Below are positions 1-6,590 of a DNA stretch of 6,590 bases, piece after piece (positions within the stretch are counted from its first letter, which is position 1; each line of letters opens with the position of its first letter). Source of the DNA: a virus; IMG/VR virus record IMGVR_UViG_3300022758_000001, positions 1-6,590 of that record; one strand, 5' to 3'. Under the pieces are notes generated by a model, which was given only the letters and a program-made list of their open reading frames with translations, did not search any database and was not told the origin of the DNA. Both the position numbers and the translations under genes were made by a program.

Positions 1-127
1 CTTCCTTTTCTGGTTCTTCTGGTTCTGGTGGTACACCTTACCAGTACACCCCTACGAATATGATTGGTGATGTTGCTTCTTTTGCTGGTGCTATGAAATC
101 TCTTTCGGAAGCTCGTAAGTCTGGTAC
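1..127. repeat. Terminal direct repeat, copy 1 (identical to 6464..6590). It is the wrap-around of a circular genome with a unit length of 6463 nt.
   Basis: Base-by-base comparison shows 1..127 (cttccttttctggttc...aagtctggtac) equals 6464..6590 exactly. The repeat lies inside a continuous ORF (VP2), so it is an assembly or window overlap and not a biological repeat. Confidence 0.95.
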
Positions 128-800
128 GGAAGCTGATTTGTTGGGTAGGTATGGTGATTCTGATTATTCTTCTCGTATCGCTAATACGGAAGCTGATACT
201 TATTTTAAACAGCGTCAATCTGATGTTGCTACTGCTCAGAAAGCTAATTTGCTTTTGTCTGCCGAAGCTCAGCAGGTTATGAATATGTATCTTCCGCAGG
301 AAAAACAGATTGAGTTATCTACGCTTGGCTCTCAGTATTGGAACTTGATTCGTGACGGTTCTATTAAGGAAGAGCAAGCTGAGAATTTACTTGCTACTCG
401 TTTGGAGATTGCCGCTCGTACAGCTGGCCAACATATTTCTAATAAGGTTGCTCGTTCTACGGCTGATTCTATCATCGACGCTACTAATACTGCTAAGATG
501 AATGAAGCTGCTTATAATCGAGGTTATTCTGTATTTTCTAATGATGTCGGTTATCGTACCGGTAAGATGGATCGCTGGCTTCAAGATCCCGTTAAAGCAC
601 GTTGGGATAGAGGTATAAATAACGCTGGTAAGTTTATTGAGGGTCTTTCTAATATTATCGGTTCTGTTACTAAGTTTGGTTTCTTAAGAAATGCTAACCA
701 AAGGTTAAAAGAAGATAAGCTACAATTTGACAGAGGTACTGTCGATATTTTCGACGATAACAAAGGTTATTCTTGGACTCGCCAACATCGTGGACGTTGA
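1..800 (+). CDS. VP2: VP2 minor capsid / DNA-pilot protein, C-terminal part. It continues from 6166..6590 across the circular junction.
   Basis: The frame is open from the window start (codons phased from nt 3) to TGA 798..800. It is in frame with ATG 6166 through the 127-nt overlap (6166 to 6523, which equals position 60, is 357 nt). The joined ORF is 1098 nt, giving 365 aa. T-ending codon bias matches the other genes. Confidence 0.85.
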   Translation, partial: SFSGSSGSGGTPYQYTPTNMIGDVASFAGAMKSLSEARKSGTEADLLGRYGDSDYSSRIANTEADTYFKQRQSDVATAQKANLLLSAEAQQVMNMYLPQEKQIELSTLGSQYWNLIRDGSIKEEQAENLLATRLEIAARTAGQHISNKVARSTADSIIDATNTAKMNEAAYNRGYSVFSNDVGYRTGKMDRWLQDPVKARWDRGINNAGKFIEGLSNIIGSVTKFGFLRNANQRLKEDKLQFDRGTVDIFDDNKGYSWTRQHRGR

Positions 801-822
801 TGTTTATTTGTTTTATTCCTTT

Positions 823-855
823 AAGGGATTGGCTTTTCAGTCAGTCCCTTTTTTG
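823..855 (+). terminator. Rho-independent (intrinsic) terminator downstream of VP2
   Basis: Hairpin aagggattggct-tttc-agtcagtccctt: a 12-bp stem pairing 823..834 with 839..850 (10 Watson-Crick pairs plus 2 G-T wobbles) and a 4-nt loop. It runs directly into a T tract (tttttt, 849..854). It starts 23 nt after the VP2 stop codon. Confidence 0.75.
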
Positions 856-926
856 TATGGCCCTTCTGCTTCACTTTACCCTCCTATCCATTCTGTCCGT
901 CCAGCTGCATGGGGGGCCCCTTTGGG

Positions 927-944
927 GGGAGCAGGCACGCTCCC
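927..944 (+). other. Perfect 6-bp GC-rich hairpin (GGGAGC / GCTCCC, 6-nt loop aggcac)
   Basis: Pairs g927-c944, g928-c943, g929-c942, a930-t941, g931-c940 and c932-g939 were checked by hand. The 5' arm shares G residues with the neighbouring CCCC-TTT-GGGG hairpin (917..927), so the two folds compete. Confidence 0.6.
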
Positions 945-986
945 TAAATCTCTATGACGAGACGGGAGTCGAGCATGAAAAAAACG

Positions 987-1020
987 TCGGCCGTCCACGG
1001 GCCGCAGCCGTGGCCGCCGG
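987..1020 (+). other. Long GC-rich hairpin
   Basis: The core stem pairs ccacgg (995..1000) with ccgtgg (1008..1013) around a 7-nt loop gccgcag. It is extended by pairs 993-1014, 991-1016, 990-1017, 989-1018, 988-1019 and 987-1020 (wobble), with t994 bulged and one C-C mismatch (992/1015). Confidence 0.55.
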
Positions 1021-1052
1021 AGGCATCATAAAGTTAAGCTATTTTACTTTGG

Positions 1053-1075
1053 TACGAAGTTCCCCGGCTTTCGTG
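1053..1075 (+). other. Hairpin tacgaag / tttcgtg (5 Watson-Crick pairs plus 2 wobbles, 9-nt loop), directly abutting the GCGAAGC motif
   Basis: Hand pairing of 1053..1059 with 1069..1075. g1075 is shared with GCGAAGC at 1075..1081. Confidence 0.4.
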
Positions 1076-1081
1076 CGAAGC
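1075..1081 (+). other. GCGAAGC heptamer (sequence of the very stable DNA mini-hairpin), copy 1 of 2
   Basis: Exact gcgaagc at 1075..1081. By my visual scan of the + strand, the only other exact copy is at 5502..5508, also noncoding. Confidence 0.5.
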
Positions 1082-1082
1082 A

Positions 1083-1108
1083 AACCGGATTAATTGTAAT
1101 CTCCGGTT
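1083..1108 (+). other. Hairpin aaccgga...tccggtt
   Basis: A perfect 7-bp stem pairs 1083..1089 with 1102..1108. Three inner pairs (1090-1099, 1091-1098, 1092-1097) follow, with a 2-nt bulge (1100..1101) and a 4-nt loop attg. Confidence 0.55.
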
Positions 1109-1192
1109 CAAACTCTCCTTGTTCACGATAGGCGAAAGTCACATCACTTTATAGATATTGTGTATATCAAAATTAGTTTTTATATTTGCGGT

Positions 1193-1702
1193 ATGATTAA
1201 CAACCGTAGTAAAACATATGGCTCTTGTCTTCATCCTCGTGTGATAAAGAACAAATATACAGGTGACCCTGTGTATGTTCCTTGTGGCACGTGTGAGTTT
1301 TGCATACACAATAAGGCAGTCAAGGCTGAGTTGAAATGTAATGTTCAATTAGCTGCTTCTAAATATTGTGAGTTTATCACTCTGACCTATTCAACGGAAT
1401 ATTTGCCAGTCGGTGAGTTTTATAAAGGTGCTTTTGGTGAGGTAAGATTTCGTTGTTTACCTCGTGATTTTGTTTATTCATATAAGACCGTTCAAGGTTA
1501 TACCCGTAATATATCATTTAACGATGAATGTTTTGACTTCGATACTCAATTGTCTTGGGATTCTGCACGATTGTTGCAGAAGAAAACACATCTACACTAC
1601 ACTTCTTTTCCTGATGGTCGGCGTATTTATAACCGCCCTTATATGGAAAATCTTGTCGGTTATCTTAACTATCGTGATATACAGCTTTTTTTAAACGTTT
1701 GA
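1193..1702 (+). CDS. VP4: Replication initiation protein VP4, N-terminal (zero-frame) segment. It encodes 169 aa if translated without a frame change.
   Basis: ATG 1193 gives MINNRSKTYGSCLHPRVIKNKYTGDPVYVPCGTCEFCIHNK..., the Cys/His cluster (C-x-HP ... VPCGxCxxC) typical of microvirus VP4 N-termini. HUH motif I is FITLTY (1373..1390). The segment ends ...NYRDIQLFLNV at TGA 1700..1702. The GTG at 1160 used by the ORF track only adds 11 unconserved residues. HUH motifs II and III are absent from this frame. Confidence 0.85.
   Translation: MINNRSKTYGSCLHPRVIKNKYTGDPVYVPCGTCEFCIHNKAVKAELKCNVQLAASKYCEFITLTYSTEYLPVGEFYKGAFGEVRFRCLPRDFVYSYKTVQGYTRNISFNDECFDFDTQLSWDSARLLQKKTHLHYTSFPDGRRIYNRPYMENLVGYLNYRDIQLFLNV
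1687..1693 (+). other. Candidate -1 frameshift site: slippery heptamer T TTT TTA within a T7 run (or the site of a homopolymer length error)
   Basis: Zero-frame codons are CTT|TTT|TTA|AAC|GTT|TGA, so 1687..1693 is phased X XXY YYZ. The -1 frame is closed by TGA 1675..1677 and open from 1678. The zero frame closes at 1700..1702. The only frame-overlap window (1678..1702) therefore contains the heptamer. Confidence 0.6.
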
Positions 1703-2826
1703 ATCAAAATATAAGGAGTATTACAAATGAAAAGATTTACTACTACGTTGTTGGAGAATATGGGCCAACAACATTCCGTCCGCATTTCCATGTCTTATTA
1801 TTCCACGACTCGAAAGAGCTCAGACAAAGTATACGACAGTTTGTTCTTAAGAGTTGGCGCTTTGGTGATACAGATACGCAACCTGTCTGGTCTTCCGCTT
1901 CTTGCTACGTTGCGGGATACGTCAATAGTACTGCGTGCCTTCCCGACTTTTATAAGAATTCTAGCTATATTAAGCCGTTCGGTCGATTTTCTACGCATTT
2001 TGCGGAATCCGCTTTTAATGAGGTTTTTAAACCGGAAGAAAATGAAGAAATATTCGCTTTATTCTATGATGGTCGAATGCTCGAACTTAATGGAAAGCCT
2101 ACACTTGTGCGGCCTAAAAGGTCGCATATCAATCGATTATACCCCCGACTTAATAAGTCTAAGCATGCGACTGTGGATGATGATGTACGAGTTGCAACGG
2201 CTTTATCAAATATCCCCCACGTCCTCGCAAAATTCGGCTTTATTGACGAAGTAACTGACTTTGAGATGTCTAGGCGTATATATTACCTTATTCGTAGGTA
2301 TCTGGAAGTTGACCATACATTGAAATATGCTCCTGAACAACTTAGGTTGATTTACAACTCTTGTCGTTTGTCGTTGTATATAAATTTCTCTGACGAAAGT
2401 GGTTGTGCTGCGATCTATCGTTTGTTGCTTAATTATCGTAACTTGGTTAATAATTGGATAACTGCGCCTGTTGGTAGTGTTGCGTTTACTGGTCAATTAC
2501 GTTATGCTATTAGATCAATTCACTCTTTCTATGATTATTGTGCTAAACGTTCGTTGCGTGACCAGTTGTTGAAAGTTAAGAAATGGTCTAATGATTCTTA
2601 TGTACGTGATAATTTGTCAATATATTATTTTTATCCGTTGACTGATGTTGATATAATGAAGAAATCTTTTTCGGAGATAGTGTTTGATAGTCCTGTTTTG
2701 CGAGCTAGCTACGCAGATTATGCCGCGGATAATCGTGAGCGTATCAAACATAAAGCTCTGAATGACAAGAACGCTTTACTTATCGCTTCTGTTGACAAAA
2801 ACATTGATTACTATTATGGAAAATGA
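1693..2826 (+). CDS. VP4: Replication initiation protein VP4, C-terminal (-1 frame) segment with the HUH and catalytic-tyrosine motifs. Fused to 1193..1693 it gives a 544-aa Rep.
   Basis: Reading from 1693 gives KRLNQNIRSITNEKIYYYVVGEYGPTTFRPHFHVLLF. HUH motif II is HFH (1783..1791). Motif III is Y-x3-Y in CYVAGYVNS (Y at 1906..1908 and 1918..1920). There is no in-frame ATG for about 125 codons; the track start at 1699 is a TTG. The stop is TGA 2824..2826. Confidence 0.85.
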   Translation, partial: KRLNQNIRSITNEKIYYYVVGEYGPTTFRPHFHVLLFHDSKELRQSIRQFVLKSWRFGDTDTQPVWSSASCYVAGYVNSTACLPDFYKNSSYIKPFGRFSTHFAESAFNEVFKPEENEEIFALFYDGRMLELNGKPTLVRPKRSHINRLYPRLNKSKHATVDDDVRVATALSNIPHVLAKFGFIDEVTDFEMSRRIYYLIRRYLEVDHTLKYAPEQLRLIYNSCRLSLYINFSDESGCAAIYRLLLNYRNLVNNWITAPVGSVAFTGQLRYAIRSIHSFYDYCAKRSLRDQLLKVKKWSNDSYVRDNLSIYYFYPLTDVDIMKKSFSEIVFDSPVLRASYADYAADNRERIKHKALNDKNALLIASVDKNIDYYYGK

Positions 2827-2986: not shown

Positions 2987-3391
2987 ATGTATAAACCAAT
3001 TCACTTTTCTTTGTTGGAACTGGTCAATACCAGTACAACAACTTTGGCAAATAATATCCCAACTTGGGATTCTTTGTTGAACTTGACTTATCTCTGTAAG
3101 TATATACTTGACCCGTTGCGTGACGCTTTCGGAAAGCCTATTTATATTAATTCCGGTTATCGTTCGAATTTTGTAAACGAGGCTGTTGGTGGTGTTTCGA
3201 ACTCTCAGCATAAATTTGGCTATGCTGCTGATATTTCGGTTAGTAGTCGTGATTCTATCTCTGAACTGTTTGCTTTGATTCAGGAAATGGAATTGCCGTT
3301 CGATCAGGTTATTTATTACCGTAAAGCTGGCTTTATTCATGTTTCTTGGTCCCCGACTTATCGAAAGCAGATTATTGTTAGGGATGCTTAA
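2987..3391 (+). CDS. Zinc metallopeptidase of the LAS / Peptidase M15 (VanY / D-Ala-D-Ala carboxypeptidase-like) type, a putative peptidoglycan hydrolase (134 aa)
   Basis: The signature is ...INSGYRSNFVNEAVGGVSNSQHKFGYAADI...GFIHV. The proposed zinc ligands are H75 (cat 3209..3211), D82 (gat 3230..3232; H-x6-D spacing) and H118 (cat 3338..3340). The SGYR...N..GG..SxH..G.AxD pattern matches what I recall for Pfam Peptidase_M15_3. There is no N-terminal signal peptide or TM segment. Confidence 0.8.
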   Translation: MYKPIHFSLLELVNTSTTTLANNIPTWDSLLNLTYLCKYILDPLRDAFGKPIYINSGYRSNFVNEAVGGVSNSQHKFGYAADISVSSRDSISELFALIQEMELPFDQVIYYRKAGFIHVSWSPTYRKQIIVRDA

Positions 3392-3593
3392 AGTTGATTC
3401 TTTCCCGTCTATTCACAATAGTGTAGTAGACGGGATACCTGAAAATTACGTTTACTATTATAAAAAGTATTTGTATGAAATTGAATTTCTCCGTTTTAAA
3501 AAAAGTGATTTTGTTGATTTACGACATTTTGACGTTTCTGTTATCGAGAAAGAAAAACAATTAGTTATTAATTTTAAGTTTGAAGAAAAATGA
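3384..3593 (+). CDS. Hypothetical small protein (69 aa)
   Basis: ATG 3384 overlaps the peptidase stop (ATGCTTAA, 8-nt overlap). Its TGA 3591..3593 overlaps the VP1 start (ATGA). The product is hydrophilic and Lys/Glu/Tyr/Phe-rich (MLKVDSFPSIHNSVVDGIPENYVYYYKKYLYEIEFLRFKK...). The alternative ATG at 3339 would overlap the peptidase gene by 53 nt. Confidence 0.5.
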   Translation: MLKVDSFPSIHNSVVDGIPENYVYYYKKYLYEIEFLRFKKSDFVDLRHFDVSVIEKEKQLVINFKFEEK

Positions 3594-5470
3594 GTAGTTT
3601 ATTTTCTTATGGCGATATTAAAAATTCGCCTCGTCGTTCAGGCTTTGACCTGTCTAATAAGTGTGCTTTTACAGCCAAGATAGGCGAGCTTTTACCTACC
3701 TATTGGAAATTCTGTTTGCCTGGTGATAAATTTCATATTTCTCAGGAATGGTTTGCACGTACGCAGCCTGTTGATACTTCTGCGTTTACCCGTATACGTG
3801 AATATTACGAGTGGTTTTTTGTTCCGCTTCATCTGCTTTACCGTAACAGTAATGAGGCAATTATGTCAATGGAAAATCAGCCTAATTATGCGGCTTCTAG
3901 CTCTGCCTCTATTAGCTTTAATCGTAATTTGCCGTGGGTTGATTTGGCAACTATTTCTGCCGCTGTTAAGAATGTTACTGGTAGTTCTTTTCCTAATAAC
4001 TTCTTTGGCTTTTCTCGCTCAGAGGGTTTTAAGAAGTTGTCTTCTTATCTTGGTTATGGTGAAATAGACCCTGATAAGTATGCGCAGAATTATCGTTTGT
4101 CTGCTTTTCCTTTTTACGCTTATCAGAAAATTTATCAGGATTACTACAGACATTCTCAGTGGGAAAAGAGTAAACCTTGGACTTACAATTGTGATTTCTG
4201 GAATGGAGAGGATTCAACGCCTGTTGCTTCTACTGTGGATTTGTTTACTCAGAATCCCAATGACTCGGTTTTCGAGCTTCGTTATGCAAACTGGAATAAA
4301 GATTTGTGGATGGGTGCTTTGCCTAACAGTCAGTTTGGAGATGTTGCGGCTGTTAATTCTATGATTGACGCCTCTACTGCTAAGGTTTCTGTTGGTGGTT
4401 CTGCTCTTGTAAATGGTAATATGCCAGTTTTATATGCTGATGAAAATGGTTCTGTAGGTAGTATGATTGCTGGTATTCGTGCCGGTGGTATTGAAGGTGC
4501 TCCTGGTAATGGTCAGACTGCGACTGCTTATCCTAGTGGAAATTTGCCTGCTAATACCCCCTACTTTTTTGCACATGGTACTGAAAAAACGCCCGTTGGT
4601 CCCAATAGTTCACCTGCTGCTATTTCTGGTTCAGACCTGACCGCGTCTCTTTCTGGTCAGTTGAACGCACAATTTTCTGTTCTTCAACTTCGCGCCGCTG
4701 AAGCCTTGCAAAAGTGGAAAGAAATTGCTCAGGCGAACGGACAAAACTATGCTGCTCAGGTTAAGGCACACTTTGGCGTTTCTACTAATCCTATGCAATC
4801 ACATCGTTCGACTCGTATTTGCGGTTTTGACGGTTCTATCGATATTTCGGCTGTGGAAAATACAAATCTTACGTCTGACGAGGCTATTATCCGCGGTAAA
4901 GGTTTAGGCGGTCAACGTATTAATGACCCGTCAACCTTTACTTGTACTGAGCATGGTATAATTATGTGTATTTATCACGCTACTCCGCTTTTGGATTATG
5001 TGCCTACGGGCCCTGACTTACAGTTGATGTCTACTGTTAAGGGCGAGTCTTGGCCTGTTCCTGAGTTTGATTCTTTAGGTATGGAGTCTTTGCCGCTTGG
5101 TCCTCTTATGAATAATAAGGCCCTTGGTGGTAGTTTGAACAATTCATTTGCTGGTTATGTTCCTCGTTACATCAGTTGGAAAACTTCTACTGATGTTGTC
5201 CGTGGTGCCTTTACGGATACTTTAAAGTCTTGGGTCGCTCCTGTTGACCTTGACTATATGAAAGTCTTTTTTGCTGGTAATACGGATGATTCGACTATTG
5301 CGGAGAATGTATTACTAACTTACTCTTGGTTTAAAGTTAATCCCTCGGTACTTAATCCTATTTTTGGCTTGGCCGTTGATTCTTCTTTTAATTCGGATCA
5401 ATTGCTTTGTAACTGTCAGTTTAACGTTAAGGTAGCGCGGAATCTTTCTTACGATGGTATGCCTTATTAG
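3590..5470 (+). CDS. VP1: Major capsid protein VP1 (F-like jelly-roll capsid protein), 626 aa
   Basis: The N-terminus MSSLFSYGDIKNSPRRSGFDLSNKCAFTAKIGELLPTYWKFCLPGDKF is the characteristic microvirus capsid start. The conserved internal motif is FSVLQLRAAEALQKWKEIAQ. It is the longest ORF, with strong T3 codon bias. The stop is TAG 5468..5470. Confidence 0.93.
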   Translation: MSSLFSYGDIKNSPRRSGFDLSNKCAFTAKIGELLPTYWKFCLPGDKFHISQEWFARTQPVDTSAFTRIREYYEWFFVPLHLLYRNSNEAIMSMENQPNYAASSSASISFNRNLPWVDLATISAAVKNVTGSSFPNNFFGFSRSEGFKKLSSYLGYGEIDPDKYAQNYRLSAFPFYAYQKIYQDYYRHSQWEKSKPWTYNCDFWNGEDSTPVASTVDLFTQNPNDSVFELRYANWNKDLWMGALPNSQFGDVAAVNSMIDASTAKVSVGGSALVNGNMPVLYADENGSVGSMIAGIRAGGIEGAPGNGQTATAYPSGNLPANTPYFFAHGTEKTPVGPNSSPAAISGSDLTASLSGQLNAQFSVLQLRAAEALQKWKEIAQANGQNYAAQVKAHFGVSTNPMQSHRSTRICGFDGSIDISAVENTNLTSDEAIIRGKGLGGQRINDPSTFTCTEHGIIMCIYHATPLLDYVPTGPDLQLMSTVKGESWPVPEFDSLGMESLPLGPLMNNKALGGSLNNSFAGYVPRYISWKTSTDVVRGAFTDTLKSWVAPVDLDYMKVFFAGNTDDSTIAENVLLTYSWFKVNPSVLNPIFGLAVDSSFNSDQLLCNCQFNVKVARNLSYDGMPY

Positions 5471-6169: not shown

Positions 6170-6590
6170 TTGGTGCTGCTATTGGTGCTGCTGGCTCTTT
6201 AGCCAGCGGTGTCGTTAACGCTATTGGTAATAATCGGCAAGGTTCTAAGAATCGTAAACATCAACTTGAAATGCAGCGGATTCAGAACGAATGGGCAAGT
6301 TCTGAATCTCAGAAATCACGTGATTTTGCTAAATCAATGTTTGACGCTACGAACGAATGGAACTCCGCTAAAAATCAGCGTGCACGCTTAGAGGAAGCTG
6401 GTTTGAATCCTTATTTGATGATGAACGGCGGTTCGGCTGGTTCTGCTCAGTCTACATCTGCAACTTCCTTTTCTGGTTCTTCTGGTTCTGGTGGTACACC
6501 TTACCAGTACACCCCTACGAATATGATTGGTGATGTTGCTTCTTTTGCTGGTGCTATGAAATCTCTTTCGGAAGCTCGTAAGTCTGGTAC
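6166..6590 (+). CDS. VP2: VP2 minor capsid / pilot protein, N-terminal part. It runs off the window end and continues at position 1 via the circular junction.
   Basis: My hand translation from ATG 6166 gives MIGAAIGAAGSLASGVVNAIGNNRQGSKNRKHQLEMQRIQNEWASSESQKSRDFAKSMFDATNEWNSAKNQRARLEEAGLNPYLMMNGGSAGSAQSTSATSFSGSSGSGGTPYQYTPTNMIGD..., with no stop before 6590. The Gly/Ala-rich hydrophobic N-terminus and the AGLNPYL motif are typical of microvirus VP2. The ORF track omits it because it has no stop within the window. Confidence 0.85.
   Translation, partial: MIGAAIGAAGSLASGVVNAIGNNRQGSKNRKHQLEMQRIQNEWASSESQKSRDFAKSMFDATNEWNSAKNQRARLEEAGLNPYLMMNGGSAGSAQSTSATSFSGSSGSGGTPYQYTPTNMIGDVASFAGAMKSLSEARKSG
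6464..6590. repeat. Terminal direct repeat, copy 2 (identical to 1..127)
   Basis: Exact 127/127 identity with the window start. Confidence 0.95.

Follow-up and report, generated by a model that had tools for sequence, protein, structure and literature searches.

The Rep gene of this gut microvirus is one gene interrupted by a single change of frame, and we conclude that the interruption is very probably a non-programmed contraction of a homopolymer by one base, from T8 to T7. The T7 site does not look like an evolved recoding feature. The zero-frame part of Rep (1193..1702, + strand) runs from the ATG at 1193 to the TGA at 1700..1702 and encodes 169 aa that include a Cys cluster and HUH motif I (FITLTY, 1373..1390); it is 95% identical to residues 1-167 of P0001, an intact Rep of 544 aa. 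The remainder (1693..2826, + strand, 377 codons, stop at 2824..2826) lies in the -1 frame, carries motif II (HFH, 1783..1791) and the catalytic YVAGY (1906..1920), and is 95% identical to residues 166-544 of the same protein. The frames overlap on the + strand between the TGA at 1675..1677, which closes the -1 frame upstream, and the zero-frame TGA (1675..1702 overall). Here sit the T7 homopolymer (1686..1692, + strand), followed by AAA, and the T_TTT_TTA heptamer (1687..1693, + strand) in the zero-frame X_XXY_YYZ phase. The original prediction had placed the motifs, the tyrosines, the upstream TGA and the T run with its heptamer at exactly these positions. It was also right that the -1 frame opens without an ATG, but the first ATG lies 133 codons past the TGA at 1675..1677, not about 125; the sole start-type codon close to the junction is the TTG at 1699.

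A -1 shift at the heptamer joins the two parts into a protein of 544 aa that reads ...IQLFLKRLNQ at the junction, and the version with eight Ts reads ...IQLFFKRLNQ. The merged protein matches the Pfam family PF23343 (REP_ORF2-G2P, HUH endonuclease) with 53.6 bits against a cut-off of 27.8 (residues 158-246) and phrog_942 with E = 1e-38 (residues 6-268). Each match is unbroken over the junction (residues 167/168), which bears out the earlier claim that the T run breaks Rep in two and that a -1 shift restores a conserved block. In a 20-sequence alignment, H198-F199-H200, Y239 and Y243 are invariant columns, and the junction falls between the nearly invariant F166 and the invariant K168/R169. Residue 167 itself is variable (F, L, H, N, Y, M, Q, I or A in the alignment, and Ser in a further homologue, P0127). 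An alternative genetic code is irrelevant here, since the two halves of Rep sit in different frames.

The window, by which we mean the whole stretch of 6590 nt that was analysed, is a complete circular microvirus genome with an exact 127-nt terminal repeat at its ends; the identical ends put the true genome length at 6463 nt. The 127-nt overlap suggests a k=127 de Bruijn, short-read-type assembly, and the protein catalogue files the products of the window under JGI/IMG. Every gene is on the + strand: a pilot-like gene of 365 aa that wraps around the contig ends, Rep (split in two frames, 1193..2826), a small ORF of 54 aa, an M15 peptidase (2987..3391, PF08291), a small ORF of 84 aa, the major capsid protein (3590..5470, PF02305) and a further ORF of 164 aa. 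The genes other than Rep are intact and collinear with those of relatives. A decaying integrated prophage is unlikely, as the contig closes via its exact 127-nt overlap and the remaining genes are intact. The nearest deposited phage is Bacteroides phage phiHBP1 (PV598014), with 82% nucleotide identity across 97% of the window; phiHBP1 is a lytic phage of B. fragilis that has been cultured and Sanger-verified (PMC13064476).

The relatives of the window locate the lesion. In a search of 5.8 billion proteins the strong matches were uninterrupted Reps only, the best being P0001 (95% identity, 544 aa, 100% query coverage, uninterrupted), which represents a cluster of 291 sequences. Each full-length member of the P0001 cluster among the matches listed has QLFFKRL at the junction, which is the sequence that a T8 run predicts and not QLFLKRL, the product of a -1 ribosomal frameshift. 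We gathered the junction DNA from 17 distinct relatives. CAG C-T8-AAR CGT with an intact Rep was found in 13 distinct lineages (88-95% Rep identity) drawn from NCBI, ENA, Logan and IMG/VR: L002 (=L003/4/13), L007, L008, L009/10, L011, L012, L014, L015, L018/19, L020/21, L022, L023 and L029. Several of these are present on many contigs (P0128 on 13, P0122 on 9). L018/19 (P0128) is the same as the window over the 60 nt compared, the sole difference being T8 versus T7 (C-T8-AAA versus C-T7-AAA). The more distant phiHBP1 (L001) has T5CTT and L005 has T5CTG (QLFLKRL), with Rep intact in both, and a clade at 58% identity (L016, L017) has TTG/TTA TTT CAT at the junction. A degenerate DNA pattern spanning the junction gave two matches in viral contigs, one of them T7, seven in metagenome contigs, all of them T8, and none in genome contigs. 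A protein-based search for the locus in IMG/VR returned six loci and no newly frame-broken Rep; the ENA contig that carries the 84-aa protein of the window is a different genome and has T8. The original prediction had offered a miscount of the run, with T8 reading QLFFKRL, as one alternative to a frameshift signal, and this is what the relatives show. It had also named conservation of the T run and of the break in close relatives as a check, and it fails this check: the break is absent from the 13 T8 lineages and from the two T5CTK lineages.

We suggest that the ancestral sequence would have been CAG CTT TTT TTT AAR CGT (Q L F F K R), with the T8 run inside an uninterrupted Rep of 539-544 aa, as in essentially all relatives, and that the window would have lost one T of this run; the direction of change, T8 to T7, is our reading of the comparison with relatives. 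The loss of a single T accounts at once for a break inside a conserved block, a heptamer in phase, a downstream part in the -1 frame and the lack of a stimulatory RNA structure. Removal of any T from CAG CTT TTT TTT AAR yields CAG CTT TTT TTA AR, so the T_TTT_TTA phase is automatic and the downstream frame is left at -1. The in-phase heptamer is therefore not independent evidence for a shift. A -1 slippery site is mimicked whenever a coding homopolymer loses one base, and, as the phase comes automatically, perfect slippery heptamers at homopolymer frame breaks should not be counted as evidence of recoding. In this T-rich genome TTTTTTA shows no enrichment: 2 occurrences in the window against 4.5 expected.

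The surroundings of the heptamer lack the elements that would stimulate a shift. Folding of the downstream 97 nt (1694..1790) is no improvement on shuffled sequence (z = +0.63), and that of the 121 nt around the site (1640..1760) is worse (z = +1.83). The sole perfect stem (1747..1754 with 1765..1772, spanning 1747..1772) starts 54 nt past the heptamer, and no stem-loop or pseudoknot was found at a spacing of 5-9 nt downstream of it; inspection by eye had likewise yielded no convincing downstream stem. The 30 nt upstream (1657..1686) hold no SD-like or GGAGG-like element, and an Rfam search of the window gave no match. The 45 nt 3' of the run, which are about 100% conserved, were considered as a stimulator and rejected: they are equally conserved in the intact T8 and T5CTT genomes, show no fold and coincide with the start of a conserved ORF in an alternative frame. 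Nor does the run itself appear to be held as a signal. At invariant Phe/Leu columns in ten T8 genomes, synonymous variation is seen in 3 of 19 TTT and 2 of 8 CTT columns; since such columns vary rarely, three invariant codons in succession are expected about half the time. T8 was therefore discarded as a conserved slippery signal: its synonymous conservation cannot be told from the background, and the run is absent in phiHBP1 and L005.

Among the genomes compared, T7 with the same frame break occurs in the window and in L006 only. L006 (IMGVR_UViG_3300045988_013671, the same contig as NODE_25 of ENA ERZ501094) has a Rep about 94% identical to that of the window. A neighbour-joining tree of Rep (200 bootstraps) places the window beside L002 and L011, both T8 genomes (73% bootstrap); a sister pair of the window and L006 receives 18.5%. 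Because the window clusters with T8 genomes and not with L006, the two T7 states are most simply read as independent events at a hot spot and not as a maintained character. The capsid gene of L006 has two 1-nt frame breaks, and the Logan and SPAdes assemblies of its sample disagree at two G5/G6 runs. The T7 of L006 is given by both assemblies, which come from different assemblers, and the SPAdes contig has a k-mer coverage of about 97; the reads of that sample probably carry T7 themselves. The exact 169-aa truncated product of the window is on record for two JGI/IMG contigs. Changes private to the window branch in the downstream Rep frame number six synonymous and one non-synonymous. This 6:1 ratio, together with the intact state of the remaining genes, means that the lesion is very recent, artefactual or functionally compensated; the split Rep is not an old pseudogene.

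The locus thus has the features of a sporadic indel: a mononucleotide run, nearest relatives that are one unit longer and intact, a scattered distribution that does not follow a clade, and a downstream frame without decay. The missing T would either have been lost in sequencing, library preparation or assembly, or be genuinely lacking in the phage DNA that was sampled, through a replication-slippage mutation at a hot spot, and we regard these two origins as roughly even. Homopolymer disagreements between assemblies, and the frequency with which genes of microvirus MAGs are split by assembly frameshifts (PMC9239249), point towards an artefact. The short-read-type assembly, the recurrence of T7 in both assemblies of L006 and the occurrence of the 169-aa product on two contigs point towards a true allele. 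In short-read de Bruijn assemblies, consensus errors in homopolymers of 7-8 nt should be uncommon, which would count against an error. Of course, a dead essential gene at consensus level in a circular and otherwise intact genome is awkward unless the gene is leaky or is complemented by a helper. E. coli genes avoid runs of U7 and A7, for which transcriptional slippage or high indel mutation rates have been given as the reason (PMC4066793). The closest precedent is the set of frame-split microvirus MAGs described by Kirchberger, Martinez & Ochman (2022, PMC9239249), in which, as here, an essential gene occupies two ORFs where relatives have one. Those cases were treated collectively as assembly problems and patched with Ns, whereas the lesion in the window is traced to a T8-to-T7 change, and the same T7 state comes from two assemblers, at least in L006. 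The annotation of the contig should show one Rep gene with a frameshift or low-quality note.

The original prediction had favoured a programmed -1 ribosomal frameshift of the HIV-1 type at U_UUU_UUA, with a fixed ratio of the 169-aa product to a 544-aa Rep containing QLFLKRL. The heptamer is correctly phased inside the 25-nt overlap, the shift falls between the conserved F166 and K168/R169, and Leu occupies residue 167 in a clade at 85% identity; however, the phase is forced by a one-T deletion, and in the 90% cluster of the window, the junction-spanning members listed carry Phe at 167 instead of Leu, except for Ser in P0127. The frame break is not conserved, close relatives having an uninterrupted Rep and phiHBP1 lacking a long T run altogether, and the site has neither a stem-loop or pseudoknot at 5-9 nt nor an SD-like element upstream. 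In E. coli, heptamers without stimulators stay near background, the ribosomal -1 shift reaching at most about 10 times a background of 0.055% (PMC4066793). We consider a programmed shift very improbable. A genuine recoding signal here would have no described precedent as a programmed frameshift in a microvirus Rep, and it would be a novel means of setting the dose of an HUH initiator. The heptamer and its phase are identical to those of HIV-1 gag-pol, and in both a -1 shift yields an enzymatic downstream product, but gag-pol has a downstream stem-loop, whereas the window site has no stimulator, its relatives have no break and its host is bacterial; functionally it would be closer to an unstimulated slippery site than to a cassette. 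The E. coli dnaX and IS3/IS911 cassettes also place a slippery heptamer within a gene with the downstream part in the -1 frame; these have an SD-like element upstream, a hairpin or pseudoknot downstream, or both, and are conserved among homologues, none of which holds for the window site. The further suggestion of a two-product logic like that of phiX174 A/A* falls with the programmed reading, relatives having an uninterrupted Rep. In both systems two Rep-related products arise from one gene region, but phiX174 A* is C-terminal and arises by internal in-frame initiation, whereas the short product of the window would be N-terminal and would end at the frame break. No evidence was found to support the 169-aa fragment as a designed product. 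Rated lower still is the idea that Rep is made as two polypeptides, with a C-terminal chain of 375 aa that starts at TTG 1699 (a TTGA stop-start overlap) and assembles with the first chain into the HUH enzyme. This TTG does overlap the TGA at 1700..1702, is the only start-type codon nearby and has AU-rich sequence just upstream. Such a split would, however, cut one fold between its HUH motifs I and II, and it is seen in no relative; L006 has TTA in place of TTG at this codon, so the arrangement is not shared, and in the intact gene the TTG does no more than encode the Leu of KRL.

Transcription offers a different route across the run. Programmed transcriptional slippage was rejected: the run is 7 nt against about 9 nt or more in known cases, relatives are in frame with T8, and 7 Ts only reach the detection threshold in E. 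coli (PMC5009743, PMC6260861). The known systems (Thermus dnaX A9, Shigella mxiE T9, Citrobacter tssM and the poly-A runs of Buchnera) resemble the window in joining an out-of-frame gene at an A/T homopolymer, but their runs are about 9 nt or longer and not 7, and the arrangement in the window is not conserved. Should the T7 allele be real, full-length Rep would be made solely through the background leakiness of the U7 run. The main rescue route would be the addition of a U by RNA polymerase, giving QLFFKRL, with a smaller share from ribosomal -1 slippage, giving QLFLKRL. Such leaky rescue is plausible, and by analogy with these systems transcriptional slippage would be its most plausible route. 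With E. coli RNA polymerase, -1-frame reporters that carry T7 or T8 regain about 5% or 10%, respectively, of the signal of the in-frame control; a U is inserted in 0.75% of transcripts at a T7 tract, and with fewer than 7 Ts nothing was detected (PMC6260861). Taken together, U insertion at T7 runs by this polymerase is about 1-5%. The G7 run of herpesvirus thymidine kinase, with its 'savior' frameshifting (PMC5009743), is alike in that a one-base homopolymer indel may be tolerated through low-level frameshifting, but the candidate leakiness here comes with no known selective advantage of the indel allele.

A stronger proposal is that the T7 allele is both real and maintained, the T8/T7 run acting as a toggling, slippage-dependent switch that attenuates or phase-varies replication; insertion of a U by the polymerase would then supply low-level full-length Rep (QLFFKRL) beside an abundant 169-aa N-terminal fragment. 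T7 is present in two different genomes that are about 94% identical in Rep, it is reproduced by two assemblers in L006 (one at ~97x coverage), and the truncated product of the window is recorded on two contigs. The other genes of the window are intact, the downstream frame is under purifying selection, and rescue at T7/T8 runs by the E. coli polymerase is on record (PMC6260861). We nevertheless think a maintained switch unlikely. The T7 genomes are not a clade, 13 lineages have T8 and an intact gene, the T8 run is conserved no more than the TTT/CTT background and is absent in phiHBP1 and L005, and L006 is damaged elsewhere too. The run of 7 is also shorter than the roughly 9 nt of known programmed cases (PMC5009743), and the rescue figures, taken by analogy, are for the polymerase of E. 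coli and not that of Bacteroides. A related idea, to which we likewise assign a low probability, is that the T8 run of this Bacteroides-associated microvirus clade is a contingency tract at which T7 alleles recur and persist at consensus level in some populations. If so, such populations would stay viable by making a few percent of full-length Rep, mainly through the polymerase and partly through ribosomal slippage, and an abundant fragment with the Zn finger and motif I; an ssDNA phage would thereby enter a state of low replication that can be reversed. The non-programmed contraction from T8 to T7 remains our preferred explanation.

Rep contains a second reading frame. An ORF of 175 codons at 1727..2254 (+ strand) lies in the +1 frame relative to the C-terminal part of Rep; it starts with ATG, and AAGGAG stands 8 nt upstream. 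SD sequences are little used by Bacteroidetes. The ORF has exactly 175 codons, and starts and stops at the same codons, in 18 of 18 close and mid-distance relatives, including the 58%-identity clade, and an equivalent ORF of 164-192 codons that begins at the same Rep codons ([Y/N]-E-K-I) is found in Reps that are 30-34% identical. With the Rep protein held fixed and synonymous codons randomised, the frame remains open with a probability of 0.0002-0.01 per genome among the closer clades and of <0.0002, 0.069 and 0.069 in three distant ones. Stops in the +1 frame are depleted in this segment only (1 observed against 4.5 expected) and are as frequent as expected elsewhere in the window. The predicted product has no Pfam or PHROG match, and Leu, Arg and Ser make up 39% of it, which is typical of non-coding or overprinted ORFs; in phiX174, a conserved non-coding ORF over a Rep motif has been reported (PMC9865509). 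The ORF at 1727..2254 is a credible candidate for an overprinted gene in Rep.

The C-terminal part of Rep contains an embedded ORF of 175 codons in the +1 frame (1727..2254, plus strand), and in the window the sequence AAGGAG lies 8 nt upstream of its ATG. The length, start and stop position of the ORF are identical in 18 of 18 relatives, which reach down to 58% Rep identity, and Reps at only 30-34% identity have equivalent ORFs of 164-192 codons. When synonymous codons were randomised, the probability of finding this frame open was ~0.0002-0.07 per genome; the depletion of +1-frame stops is confined to the segment occupied by the ORF. We suggest that the ORF is a candidate overprinted gene. 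The open frame could instead be a side effect of Rep motif conservation, and a conserved non-coding ORF over a Rep motif has been described in phiX174 (PMC9865509). Searches of Pfam and PHROG with the ORF gave no match, and Leu, Arg and Ser (L+R+S) account for 39% of its content.

The start of the embedded ORF falls inside a 45-nt block that follows the T run (1703..1747, CAAAATATAAGGAGTATTACAAATGAAAAGATTTACTACTACGTT), the nucleotides of which are essentially invariant among relatives that are 82-95% identical overall. This invariance is independent of whether the run is T8, T7 or T5CTT. The block was considered as a frameshift stimulator and rejected in that role. Immediately before it, a start-type codon, TTG (1699..1701), shares bases with the TGA that ends the zero frame (1700..1702), and such a TTGA stop-start overlap would permit reinitiation in the C-terminal frame of Rep after termination. 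The overlap at 1699..1702 is probably a coincidence, as in the intact genes this TTG simply encodes the Leu of KRL, and L006 (IMGVR_UViG_3300045988_013671) has TTA at this position.

L006 (the same as L027) is the only T7 contig besides the window. Between 4366 and 6223 it carries two further one-base deletions that leave its capsid gene in three frames. Both deletions lie beyond the end of an independent Logan contig from the same sample (L028), which includes only the first ~260 nt of the capsid gene. The Logan and SPAdes contigs of this sample differ at two G5/G6 runs. Taken together, these features of the assembled sequences suggest strain-mixture mis-assembly and homopolymer-length uncertainty in the L006 dataset. 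A human gut metagenome scaffold in ENA (L029, 1889..3516) encodes an 84-aa protein that exactly matches that of the window; it is a distinct T8 genome, ~91% identical, and its Rep is interrupted solely by a 10-N scaffold gap.

The interval between the pilot gene and Rep (800..1192, plus strand) is called in relatives as a gene of 124-142 aa. Its reading frame shifts from genome to genome, and conservation is lowest here (46-62% at protein level); the interval is therefore probably non-coding. It contains a G6-C4-TTT-G6 element (911..929) and is GC-rich around 985..1020; folding of 880..960 revealed nothing significant. The contig, probably the product of a k=127 de Bruijn assembly, has an exact 127-nt terminal direct repeat (1..127 and 6464..6590) and closes into a circle of 6463 nt. 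A 365-aa pilot-like gene spans the contig ends by wrapping.
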